Origin: Camelus dromedarius
Lineage: Eukaryota
Length of the DNA: 64,000 bases
Assembly (NCBI RefSeq): GCF_036321535.1
Contig: NC_087436.1
Span: forward strand, 6,634,001 to 6,698,000
Direction of reading: 5' to 3'
A program made the translations under genes and the position numbers. The notes below the pieces were generated by a model. It made no database searches. It had not been told where the DNA came from and saw nothing but the letters and a program-made list of their open reading frames with translations. The first letter of the stretch is position 1, and each line of letters begins with the position of its first letter. Below are positions 23,039 through 59,025 of this stretch, piece by piece.

Positions 23039-24764
23039 AAAAGACATTTCTGACTAGATGGGGTAAGGGAGGGTGGTATGTTTCTGGCCATAATGTGACT
23101 TGTCTTAATAAAGTCACAAGAGATGAGACCAATATCTGAGATACAGGATACTGACCAGTACTGGCAGTTCTACTGAGGTACATGCTCCCAGTAAACAGAG
23201 AGAAACAGCAAAGTTGCAAATTAGGGTCCTGTGTACCCTTCATCCTGCAAAAGGATGCACCAGCACGAACACAACCCACCACTTTAACAGGAAAAATCTG
23301 AAGGAAAAACATAAACGGAGTTTCGGTTTCTACCACTTTCCCCTTACCTTTGTGAATTTCAGCACTTCACAGTTACTATCCTACCGAGGCCCAAAACCTA
23401 CACAATAAAAATTGACGATGCAAATGAAAATGGCCCAGAAGAAATATTTTTTATTATTTCTATTTATGTAAATCCATTTGCCTTTTTGATTTCTCCTTTG
23501 AACAAGTCTCAGAGAACCCTGGTGAACCACTGCCCACTGCTGAGGCAGGAGATGCGGAGAGCCAAGGTGGGACTCTTCCCATCGTCAGAAAAACTGGAGA
23601 GCCAAGGATATAAGACTAAGGTTAAGAAGCTGCTTTTAGTGTGCTAAGCTCCATTACACCACAGGTGGCGATTTCTGCACCAAGGGGCGAAGTTTCACGG
23701 AGGCCAGAGTGGGCGGGGGGGGGGGGGGGAGGTAGGAAAGTGAACTCAAGTTTGGCAGCTCCTCCCTATCCGCACCAAAGAGTCTGCCGTAGACCCCACA
23801 TTAGGATGTGCTCTGACTGTTAAACACGTATTAGGAAAGCAGCCCTTTGTTGCAAGGTAGCTTTAGTTTCTAAACCTATGTAGTAAATTCCACGTGTTTT
23901 GTAATTGCACTTTCAACTTTCTACGTAACTGTGGGACGGTGGCCCAAGACGCCGAACAGAGCAAAGTATTCGACCAAACATTTAAATTATTAAAAAAAAA
24001 AACCACTAAACAAAAGCACATCTGCAGAAATCTAACTTGGATATCGCCGAAGTGCCAACACCTCGGGTGCAATGGGAGTCCCATCCGATCCGCGAGGCAG
24101 CAACCAATTGTATTCATCTCCCCCCGCCCCCAGCGCACGCCCCCCCAGGAGGTAGACCGCGCACCTGCCCAAGGCGGGGACCAAGTGCACGGCCTTTTGT
24201 CTCCGGAGAACAAAGAGCCGCCTTGCGCTCTCTGGCTGCGTCCTGGGACCCATGCGGTCTCCGGGACCCCGCGCTGTCAGCCGGGCCGCGCCCAGGGGCA
24301 GCCCCCACTTTAGACGCGCGACCCTCTGGCTCCCACCAGCCTGGGTCCCAACCCCGCCCCAGGGCCCCACCTCACCAACAGGGTTCCGCCCTCGGCCCCG
24401 AGCGCACCAGGGCCCCGCCCCCGCCTAGCCGCGCGACCCCCGACATCGGCCCCCAGTCGCGCGCCCCTGCGTCCCCCAGGCCTGTCCCCACGAGCCCGCA
24501 GATCTCTGATCCCTCGTTCCCCCCGCCGCCTGACCCCCGGGCTCCCGGCCCTCCAAGCGGCTCGCCCCACGACCCCCGCTCCCTCGCTCACCAGGGCTTC
24601 GCCCCAACCCAGTCACACACCCCGCCTCTGGGCCCCAGCACCCGGCGTCCCAGGCCTCCGCCCCCGCGAGGACCCGGGGCCCCTGTTAGCCACGGCCGCT
24701 GGGCTCTCCTGCTCCTCACCCAGTTGAGAGAGCAGGGCGGGGCCACTGGGCCAATGGCGGCCGC

Positions 24765-25325
24765 GCTCCCCTCTGCGCTCCGCCCCCCGCCCCCCTCTCC
24801 GCGCTCCCCCCCCCGCTCCAGCCCCTCCTCCGGGCTCCTCCCTCTGCGTTACTCCCTCCTCCCCTGCTTCACCCCCTTCGCGCTCCTCCCCCAACGTTCC
24901 CCTTCTCCCAGGCTCCTCCCCTCTCCCCGCCCGCGTTCCCCCCTCCACCTCGCGCTCTCCCCGTTCCACACCGCGGGCTCCTCCCCTACCATCCCCCCTC
25001 TGTTAACCTCCCCAGGCTCCTCCCTCCCCCCGGGCTCTCCCTCTACCCCGCTCTCCTCGCTCCTTCCCCCGGGCTCCTCCCCGTTCACACCCCACCGCGC
25101 TCCCCTCCCCCCCGTCTCCTCCCCCTACCGCGCTCCCCCCGTTCACCTCCGCAATCCCCCTCTCCGGGCTCCTCCTCCCTCCTCCCTTACTCTCCTCCCC
25201 CCGCTCCCCGCCCCGCGCTCCCCCTCCCCCCGCGCTCTCCGCCTTCCCCCCCCGCCGCGCTCCCGCTCCTCCTAGGGTCCCCCCTCCCTCCGCGCTCCCC
25301 ACCTCCCCGCGTTCCTCCCCTCGCC
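24765..25325. repeat. C-rich/pyrimidine-rich low-complexity tract
   Basis: About 560 bp of CTCCCC/CGCTCC-like degenerate units with very few A on the + strand. Confidence 0.9.
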
Positions 25326-25440
25326 CGCGGGAGGGACCTGTCAGCGCGCGGCGGCGGGCCAGCGCCGTCATATGACCGGCCGGCCGCCCCGGCGCCCAGC
25401 ACAGCCCCTCCGCCCCCGGCCCCGCGCGCCTGCCGCCGCG

Positions 25441-25497
25441 ATGGCCCCGCCGCCGCCGCCGCCGCCTCCGCCGCCGCAGCCCCCGGCCGCGCGCTGA
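25441..25497 (+). other. Upstream ORF in the FNIP2 5' leader, 18 aa [18 protein letters not shown]
   Basis: GCCGCCGCGATGG context (G at -3, G at +4). Ten consecutive Pro codons, TGA at 25495-25497, 58 nt before the main ATG. A weaker in-frame ATG at 25372 could extend it to 41 aa. Assumes the TSS lies upstream of 25441. Confidence 0.7.
25447..25476 (+). repeat. (CCG)6 CCT (CCG)3 trinucleotide repeat in the 5' leader
   Basis: Read directly from sequence. Confidence 0.95.
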
Positions 25498-25555
25498 GCC
25501 CCTCGAGCGCCGCGCGGACCGGATCCGAGCGGAGCGGAGCCCGAGCGGCCGCGTC

Positions 25556-25662
25556 ATGGCCCCGACCCTGCTCCAGAGGCTCTTCAACAAGAAGGGCGGC
25601 GGCGGCTCGGCGGCAGCGGCGGCGGCCCCGGGCCGGGCGCCCCGGGAAGGACCCGCCTTCAG
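25556..25662 (+). CDS. FNIP2: FNIP2 (folliculin-interacting protein 2) coding exon 1
   Basis: ATG at 25556 in strong Kozak context (GTCATGG). Translates [35 protein letters not shown] + AG, then donor AG|GTGAGG at 25663. Matches the recalled human FNIP2 N-terminus [35 protein letters not shown](S) with the same length (35 codons + 2 nt, phase 2). Lies in a CpG island. Confidence 0.96.
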
Positions 25663-26329
25663 GTGAGGGGCGCAGCGCGCCGGCGGGCGAACGGAGGGAT
25701 GGAGGCGGGGGATGAGGGATGGAATGAGGGGGATGAGGGGAAGGGAGAGGAGGCGGTGGAGGGGAGGGGGCGGGCCGCCCGGACCCTGCAGCCCCAGGCT
25801 CCTGCCCGGCCGGGCGTCGCGGGCACTCTCCAGCGCGGCCCCGAAGCCTCCGTGCCCAGGAGGGTCCCTCGCCCCCCTCGCTCCCCTCACCCCCTTCTCT
25901 CCTCCCTCCGGCTCCTTCCTCACCGCTTGGGGTCCCTCCCCTCCCGGAGTTGTTGGGGCTCAGGGGGAATCCCCACTTTGCTCGGGCCTGGACGCGGAAC
26001 CGGGGGTCCCTGGGGTCCCGGGGTCTGGGGACCCCTCCCGCAGAGCCGCCGGGCTGCACTGTCACCCTGGGGGCAGCCCAGCCTATTGTGTACGTGACAG
26101 TGTCCTGAACTTGTGAAGGAGCAGCTGTCGCCAGCAAGGCATCTTTCTTGTTCCTTGCTGTAGGTGACCAGTTCTCAGACGGATGATGAAAGTCTCTCGT
26201 TTGGAAGGGTGATGCCGCGTGAGGTCCGCAGGGGGCGGGATGCGTTCCCCATCTGCTGAGACCCTCTCACAAAGCTGATGCCGCGTTTAGGAGGGCTGAC
26301 CTGAGTGCACACCTTTAAAGGGGCACTGC

Positions 26330-57997: not shown

Positions 57998-58173
57998 ATG
58001 TGCGGGGGCCCCTCGAAGGGCGCGGAGCAGCCCGGGAGCCGGAGGGACCCAGCTGGCTGCGTGAGCGATGCCGTTTCTGGTGCTTGGAGGACCCAGAAGA
58101 CGCTTTTATGTGAAAAGCTTCGCAAACAAGCCAGGATAGGAAGGGGCCCCGACCCCACGGAACTCAACCACAG
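57998..58173 (+). CDS. FNIP2: FNIP2 alternative first coding exon (alternative N-terminus, 58 codons + 2 nt)
   Basis: ATG at 57998 (GAGATGT). Translates MCGGPSKGAEQPGSRRDPAGCVSDAVSGAWRTQKTLLCEKLRKQARIGRGPDPTELNH + AG, then donor CAG|GTTTGA at 58174. Same phase-2 AG ending as exon 1, so compatible with the same exon 2. Resembles the MCGG...QP...DAV.G...LLC.K...D.TEL N-terminus recalled for a longer human FNIP2 isoform. Confidence 0.8.
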
Positions 58174-59025
58174 GTTTGAAACTTCAGTTCTGTTTCAGGA
58201 TCTCAGAGAAACTCTGATGTAGTTTGCCACGTGGTAAGGAGAGAAAAGTGTGCTGATCTGAGACTCGTGTTTCCAGACTGCCCCTAGGCAGAGACTACCC
58301 CTAGGCAGGCGGCTCAGGTGGGGTGGGGGACGGGCAGACAAGTCCTCTCCTTCCTCGGGGAGCTGGGGGCACGAGCATTTTTCTGTGGCTGTTTGGATTC
58401 AGCCACCACGTGCTTCCCTCTTCACTTCCCACGGCCCCGCGGGAGCCACCATGAGCAGCGTTGCGTCCTGTCCCGAGGAGGCTTGAACACAGTGGTCATC
58501 AGGGAAGGGGGTGCGGCCCCGAGGGCAGTGCCGTGACAGATGTGGCGCATGGCGGGCATGCTGGCTTCTCAGCCTGACAGGTGGGTGGAGGGCCGGGCGT
58601 CCTGGCTGGCGGTGGGGAGGGGAGGGAGCGCCCGGTCTTGTCTTCTGGAGACTCCTTTCCTGGGCAGGATGCTGTCAGGACGAACTGGCCAGTAACGCAG
58701 CTCATCAAAGGAATACCATCATCCTCGCTGTCTTCTCTTAGGCTGATTATTTCATCCACTTGGGAAGAATTCATTAATTTTATTATCAGTAGCTCTCAAC
58801 TGAAGTGTTATTTGTAAAGAGCGTTAGTGCATATCAGTGAGACAGGAAAACCCTTTGAGAATTGCACTTTATTTCAGAACGTTACGTGGATAGACAGCAA
58901 GGAGAGCCGAAGGGTGAGCTCCCGTCTCGTGGCTGGTGTGAAAGTCAGTTTCTCCATTGGCTTAAATGTTGTTACCTTTTTCCTTGTAGAAGTCTTATCA
59001 AAGTTAACATGACTCATAAACTGTT

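Follow-up and report, generated by a model that had tools for sequence, protein, structure and literature searches.

[quoted passage not shown] The coding part of exon 1 ends with AG in phase 2 and is followed by a GT donor at 25663-25664. Exon 2 lies outside the window, at G000:C1:6712995, where the letters C TGG TCC TGT TCT GAG TTC GAC follow ccatag; the reading frame of exon 1 continues into it once an intron of about 53 kb is removed. The Pfam profile FNIP_N (PF14636) matches twice downstream of the window, at C1:6712995-6713096 and at C1:6717925-6718032, and the related proteins found (P0003-P0005) bear the name FNIP2 and contain the FNIP_N, FNIP_M and FNIP_C domains (PF14636, PF14637 and PF14638). 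These domains, together with an N-terminal exon joining in frame, place the gene in the FNIP family, and the identification as FNIP2 made in the first-pass annotation of this DNA is borne out by the in-frame join of exon 1 and the FNIP_N match of exon 2. The FNIP_N profile also matches a paralogue of FNIP2 on C3. No Pfam match was found in 37 of the 296 stop-to-stop ORFs of at least 70 aa, these being the long ones outside the CpG island in the window.

The alternative first coding exon, with its ATG at 57998, offers several GT sites, and the phase-2 donor at 58174 (cag/GTTTGA), weak in appearance, is the one used by the annotated models. A stronger-looking donor, GTGAGC at 58061, was rejected, since it would leave a phase-0 exon that does not keep the frame of exon 2. 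The 58-residue peptide read to 58171 is 98% identical, over 100% of its length, to an entry named 'folliculin-interacting protein 2 isoform X3 [Camelus ferus]', and 98% and 90% identical to entries from Camelus bactrianus and Vicugna pacos, respectively; homologues were seen in camelids only (3 matches among 8 candidates). The first-pass annotation had also proposed an alternative first exon at this position, and it is indeed the annotated model N-terminus in Camelus and Vicugna. Judged from these sequence matches, a route to FNIP2 that does not include the uORF is thus annotated in close relatives.

Table 1. Features at and around the two first coding exons of FNIP2, in window positions (., no strand assigned).
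Feature	Position	Strand	Basis
CpG island; presumed promoter of FNIP2, with leader and exon 1	24200..26200	.	composition
Degenerate, C-rich tandem repeats preceding the leader; GC skew between -0.5 and -0.78	24760..25330	.	
Upstream in-frame ATG in weak context, within the palindrome GTCATATGAC	25372..25374	+	sequence
AUG uORF, 18 codons and stop	25441..25497	+	sequence, translation
Imperfect (CCG)n microsatellite, corresponding to the proline run	25447..25490	.	Tandem Repeats Finder
Spacer of 58 nt; pairing partner of the CCG run (3' half) in the predicted fold	25498..25555	+	
FNIP2 exon 1, coding part, ...GPAF	25556..25662	+	joined in frame with exon 2
Alternative first coding exon, MCGGPSKGAEQPG...PDPTELNH	57998..58173	+	camelid protein models

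Direct reading of the forward strand gives an uORF that opens with ATG at 25441-25443 and closes with TGA at 25495-25497, with the letters ATG GCC (CCG)6 CCT (CCG)3 CAG CCC CCG GCC GCG CGC TGA. The predicted peptide is Met-Ala-Pro10-Gln-Pro-Pro-Ala-Ala-Arg-stop, with 18 sense codons and the proline run at codons 3-12. With an AUG and an in-frame stop upstream of the main AUG, it is in sequence a classical AUG uORF. The upstream ATG (uATG) stands in the context GCCGCCGCGATGG, preceded by the letters GCCGCCGCG, and has G at both -3 and +4. The upstream positions of the Kozak consensus are GCCGCCRCC, and the uATG agrees with eight of these nine, with a mismatch at -1 only. The main ATG of FNIP2 at 25556 has the context cgcgtcATGg; it lies 115 nt from the uATG, and the uORF is therefore out of frame with the main ORF, whose own frame is open upstream as far as a TGA at 25373. 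An 18-codon polyproline ORF with a near-optimal start, ending 58 nt before the FNIP2 ATG, was what had been described at first, and it proved exact on re-reading, as did, after re-reading and translation, every other sequence statement of that description. Among these is that the uORF and the main ORF have the same opening letters, since both begin with ATGGCCCCG; the chance of a 6-nt extension common to both starts is about 0.008 given the local base composition, although this is a post hoc figure.

Further upstream, a second ATG shares the frame of the uORF and has a weak context (cgtcatATGa); if transcribed, it would give a 41-codon version of the uORF. It lies within GTCATATGAC, a perfect palindrome of 10 bp (25367-25376) about 70 nt upstream of the uATG, with the core CATATG. 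The CLEAR element bound by TFEB/TFE3 is GTCACGTGAC. The palindrome has CLEAR-like flanks, but its core is CATATG, and a canonical CLEAR element or E-box in the promoter was rejected because there is no CACGTG within 24000-26300.

To what does this uORF owe its form? Tandem Repeats Finder reports a CCG array of period 3 over 25447-25490 (14.3 copies, 80% matches) and a GC-rich array of period 12 over 25425-25474, which spans the context of the uATG too. The proline run is what a decaying microsatellite yields when read in the CCG frame, and the Kozak context of the uATG is a product of the same GCC/CCG periodicity; the ORF reads through a CGG-family microsatellite, as is the case for uORFs derived from CGG/CCG repeats. 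The proline run and the Kozak context may look designed, yet they have one ordinary cause in the CCG/GCC repeat, and since the microsatellite covers the whole uORF including its start context, an incidental origin has to be the default. The microsatellite nature of the uORF, Kozak context included, had been missed in the first-pass annotation. A second triplet repeat, a coding (GGC)n at 25595-25626, is present in FNIP2 exon 1, 148 nt downstream of the CCG repeat.

Chance expectation was estimated from 5000 dinucleotide-preserving shuffles of the candidate leader, taken as 176 nt or 256 nt. ATGs were common in the shuffled leader (on average 0.74 per 176 nt and 1.1 per 256 nt). By contrast, only 0.2% of the 176-nt and 1.6% of the 256-nt shuffles had an ATG in strong context whose ORF ended ahead of the main ATG, since a sequence so rich in GC contains few stops. 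This rarity is mild evidence that the uORF is not due to chance, leaving some room for selection on stop and start, under a null that disregards ascertainment and the purging that uATGs overlapping the main start have likely undergone. Throughout the genome the configuration ATG-NNN-(CCN)10 was found 12 times (8 forward, 4 reverse), as compared to 5 times for the reversed control pattern. Half of the 12 sites, including that of FNIP2, are in CpG-island-like DNA, and the FNIP2 site has the best start context among them; the configuration is rare but not unique. The CCG stretch itself has at least 40 look-alikes elsewhere in the same genome.

Three other ATG-started polyproline ORFs in CpG-island-like DNA, at G000:C9:70588218 (L134), C9:80232541 (L135) and C10:33180063 (L136), are 80, 53 and 49 codons long with up to 24 prolines, and may be further repeat-born polyproline uORFs. 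CCG-rich look-alikes were also observed in tandem at a spacing of about 3.5 kb over G000:C30:25294662-25361300, as well as on two small contigs (C73 and C101), an arrangement that suggests a GC-rich macrosatellite or a multicopy unit.

Repeats of this kind have been catalogued in human. A catalogue of 6101 human CGG-family repeats, covering all frames and strands and annotated by ANNOVAR against refGene hg19, places 1836 of them in 5'UTRs (PMC7844047), so that such tracts are ordinary leader content. Among the entries of this catalogue is an FNIP2 repeat labelled 'UTR5' at hg19 chr4:159690283, with 6 units in the reference, a median of 7, a range of 6-7 and a cohort polymorphism of 0.49; a second FNIP2 repeat labelled 'upstream', with 5 units in the reference and a median of 6, lies 186 bp upstream at chr4:159690097 (PMC7844047). 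Human and camelid thus share a repeat at this place, which in human falls in or on the annotated 5'UTR and differs between people by whole codons. The catalogue of human Ribo-seq ORFs reportedly has a lower length limit of 16 residues, so a human FNIP2 uORF with 6-7 prolines could be missed by it, and reads from repeats map poorly. That table holds 7,264 ORFs, among which the uORFs of FLCN and AZIN1 are present and FNIP2 has no entry; at least six consecutive prolines occur in six of its ORFs (MIR205HG, RAB26, HS3ST4, C16orf74, RBM15B and CNOT7), and all six are labelled 'young' (PMC10032668). A text search retrieved no published FNIP2 uORF and no link between FNIP2 and hypusine in the portions of the literature open to it, including those of PMC11770079 and PMC7640403. 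An orthologous leader was not found by blastn of 24300-25550 against 126 loci, which returned only the CCG look-alikes of the same genome and chance matches of 21-33 bases; a metagenome scan with a 16-base promoter word gave at least 119 stretches. For an antisense ORF (P0002, 181 aa) in the codon register of the uORF, none of 8000 candidates matched at E <= 0.001.

For the uORF to act on FNIP2 it has to be in the mRNA, and the position of the transcription start site (TSS) is therefore decisive. Many CpG-island leaders are shorter than the 115 nt that separate the uATG from the main ATG, and the TSS could lie within or downstream of the CCG tract, in which case the uATG would be mostly outside the mRNA and the ORF without effect. 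At the TSS of strong (Class I) CpG-island promoters in human, the skew climbs sharply to positive values (PMC3787257). In the island, where the GC content is 0.72-0.90 and CpG observed/expected is about 1 between 24800 and 25700, the GC skew is -0.6 to -0.78 over 24800-25275 and makes a first step up at about 25300-25340. By 25350-25375 it is at about -0.15; over the CCG run it declines again to -0.34, and it then becomes positive near 25560, with a maximum of +0.73 at 25725. With this profile a TSS is possible either near 25300-25350, with the uATG included, or near the main ATG, with the uATG excluded. The negative skew over 25425-25525, with positive values only from about 25560 onwards, would fit the latter, and the earlier rise at about 25300-25340 fits the former equally well. 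The human annotation is also open to two interpretations: the human repeat is given as 5'UTR and not as upstream, which argues for a transcribed repeat, although ANNOVAR assigns 'UTR5' on mere overlap (PMC7844047), which would allow the human repeat to lie across the annotated TSS.

Some further indication came from sequencing runs. The stretch was present in 20 of the 24 runs listed, and one of these 20 (X4) is on record as RNA. This recorded RNA-seq run contained 0.90 of 29 sampled words of 25330-25665, whereas RNA starting at or after 25441 could by simple arithmetic yield at most about 0.64 of the sampled words of this region. Since the reads of X4 may come from DNA or pre-mRNA, the word share is a weak hint that the uATG is transcribed; the shares of 0.59-0.62 in X12-X14 were not counted as evidence. 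Weighing these observations, we regard a uATG outside most FNIP2 transcripts as possible but rather unlikely, and think it fairly probable that a substantial part of the transcripts includes the uATG.

Just inside intron 1, at 25680-25780, we observed a G-rich repeat block of the GGGATGAGGG type with skew up to +0.73, and the strand-asymmetric DNA that flanks exon 1 is a candidate for i-motif/G-quadruplex formation or for being R-loop-prone. The GC-rich repeat could be imagined to act as nucleic acid, through leader structure, promoter chromatin or R-loops that limit scanning, with the ORF being incidental. The predicted folds are indeed deep, with minimum free energies of -69.4 kcal/mol for 25400-25550 (151 nt) and -120.2 kcal/mol for 25330-25550 (221 nt), and include a hairpin in which the 3' half of the CCG run is paired with the GCGGAGCGGAG spacer. 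However, these folds are no more stable than those of dinucleotide shuffles, and a special RNA structure was rejected (z +0.96 and +0.19): 172 of 200 shuffles of the shorter and 116 of 200 of the longer stretch folded at least as well. Nor was any Rfam family matched within 24000-25550, where the sole hit had an E value of 0.59 and was far below the gathering score. A strong AUG would moreover still be read by scanning ribosomes, and we find it improbable that the effect of the repeat is of this kind.

If the uORF is translated, its most conspicuous property would be the proline run. Peptide bonds between consecutive prolines need eIF5A, and pausing at such sites is increased in human cells in which EIF5A or DOHH is knocked out (PMC6917043). 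A stall motif takes three or more consecutive prolines, translated, and the uORF frame holds ten consecutive Pro codons. The first-pass annotation had rested its argument on this dependence and on the AZIN1 element, which was said to use a PPW pause, and PMC6917043 and PMC9788402 agree on both points. In the upstream conserved coding element (uCC) of AZIN1, a weak non-AUG start gains use when ribosomes queue behind a conserved terminal PPW (Ivanov et al. 2018, as described in PMC6917043 and PMC9788402). The FNIP2 uORF resembles it as an upstream coding element with a proline pause, relieved by eIF5A, that has been suggested to govern how the main ORF is translated. It differs in that its start is a strong AUG and not a weak non-AUG codon, in that its peptide ends QPPAAR and contains no Trp, and hence no terminal PPW, and in that its proline run is N-terminal and the element a microsatellite. 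With a strong AUG, the choice of start site cannot be the regulated step, unlike in AZIN1. The FNIP2 uORF is thus not an AZIN1-type uCC, though it might behave in a related way; of the parallel drawn in the first-pass annotation, the biochemistry of the proline pause and eIF5A stands, and the weak non-AUG start and the terminal PPW have no counterpart here.

More generally, loss of eIF5A causes pausing and queuing at PP motifs located up to 67 codons downstream of an upstream start, and start-codon fidelity on MYC, PLOD3 and other genes depends on eIF5A (PMC6917043). By sequence the FNIP2 uORF belongs to 'group 1' of that study, with the difference that the upstream starts that gain use there are weak and the one in FNIP2 is already strong. 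There is a likeness, too, to human uORFs such as RAB26 c16norep12 (MP11) and CNOT7 c8riboseqorf15, which are AUG uORFs that read a CCG-type repeat as polyproline in a CpG-island leader (PMC10032668). The uORF of RAB26 also lies on a polymorphic CGG-family repeat in the 5'UTR, which ranges from 5 to 36 units in people (PMC7844047). These uORFs belong to other genes, are all young, and are given in the accessible data of PMC10032668 without a demonstrated regulatory role. For FLCN, the partner in the same RagC/D GAP complex, uORF control has been reported (PMC11770079), but the human FLCN uORF peptide MPDPFGSSLVCGGLVWTVEA is unrelated to that of FNIP2, has no proline run and, in what that source provides, no link to eIF5A. 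A wider comparison is with FMR1. In this gene, translation upstream of the main ORF through a CGG repeat yields FMRpolyG, and antisense FMR1 holds an AUG-initiated polyproline ORF. In FNIP2, as in FMR1, a CGG/CCG repeat in the leader would give a homopolymeric upstream peptide, which can influence the output of the main ORF; FMRpolyG differs in its non-AUG starts and in being polyglycine, and its repeat is far longer and disease-linked.

Taken together, the reading that we prefer, and to which we give about an even chance, is that of a microsatellite-born AUG uORF in a CpG-island leader, which, if transcribed, would repress FNIP2 in a generic and probably mild way and be incidentally sensitive to eIF5A. 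We infer its transcription, translation, repressive effect and dependence on eIF5A from the anatomy of the locus and from what is known of such elements. By the rules of scanning, on a transcript that starts upstream of 25441 most 43S complexes would initiate at the strong uAUG, and FNIP2 from the exon-1 promoter would be made by the minority that scan past it and by re-initiation. Re-initiation decreases with the length of an uORF and with slower translation of it, and it needs intercistronic distance (PMC5389480); an uORF of 18 codons with a spacer of 58 nt would normally allow some of it. Ten prolines starting at codon 3 would lengthen the transit, and a ribosome stalled there would stand near the uAUG, so that following complexes would queue upstream; ribosomes paused in a leader are known to give rise to queues that impede scanning complexes (PMC6917043). 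The FNIP2 uORF would in this way be more repressive than the average uORF of 18 codons. At low eIF5A activity, stalling and queuing would increase, with stronger repression and less FNIP2 from the exon-1 promoter, and the 57998 exon would be a route to FNIP2 without the uORF. S6K2 was not lowered upon eIF5A knock-down despite its polyproline motif (PMC9788402), and a proline run is therefore no guarantee of a measurable eIF5A effect. The sensitivity to eIF5A would be a biochemical by-product of the repeat and not a selected sensor.

A more ambitious interpretation, in essence that of the first-pass annotation, is a dedicated, selected eIF5A/polyamine switch, in which transit through the polyproline run sets FNIP2 output and would thereby couple the hypusine or polyamine status to signalling through FLCN-FNIP2, RagC/D and TFEB. 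Ten consecutive prolines are among the strongest eIF5A-dependent motifs (PMC6917043, PMC9788402), and the rarity of a contained strong-context uORF under the composition null points in the same direction. It would also be coherent with the uORF regulation of the partner gene FLCN (PMC11770079) and, as a second input, with the reported need for hypusinated eIF5A in TFEB synthesis (Zhang 2019, cited in PMC9788402). Against selection stand the lack of FNIP2 from the human ORF table (PMC10032668) and from the published uORFs retrieved by our search, the length polymorphism of the human FNIP2 repeat (PMC7844047) and the classification of all human polyproline Ribo-seq ORFs as young (PMC10032668). 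Neither the weak non-AUG start nor the terminal PPW that define the AZIN1 element is present, and FNIP1 and the uORF-free alternative first exon would buffer any effect; we consider a dedicated switch unlikely. Very improbable in our estimation is that the polyproline uORF actually reports the level of hypusinated eIF5A to the FLCN-FNIP2 RagC/D GAP. In that event ribosomes would, at low eIF5A activity, stall within the ten prolines and obstruct the leader, and less FNIP2 would be made, thereby freeing TFEB/TFE3 from mTORC1 control just as TFEB synthesis becomes eIF5A-limited; whole-codon CCG changes would tune FNIP2 dosage between individuals and species, with the 57998 exon as bypass.

Returning to the generic, repeat-born uORF, the most likely case is that FNIP2 adds one more to the repeat-born uORFs in CpG-island leaders, a kind already catalogued in human leaders. 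For annotation of the gene this case would be of use in pointing out a strong uAUG, a structured GC-rich leader and a uORF-free alternative first exon. Should the uORF be both transcribed and sensitive to eIF5A, FLCN-FNIP2/RagC/D/TFEB nutrient signalling would gain a translational input from polyamine and hypusine status, in addition to what has been reported for FLCN (control by an uORF) and for TFEB (synthesis dependent on eIF5A). In that case FNIP2 would also offer a natural instance of uORF strength being set by a repeat of variable length.
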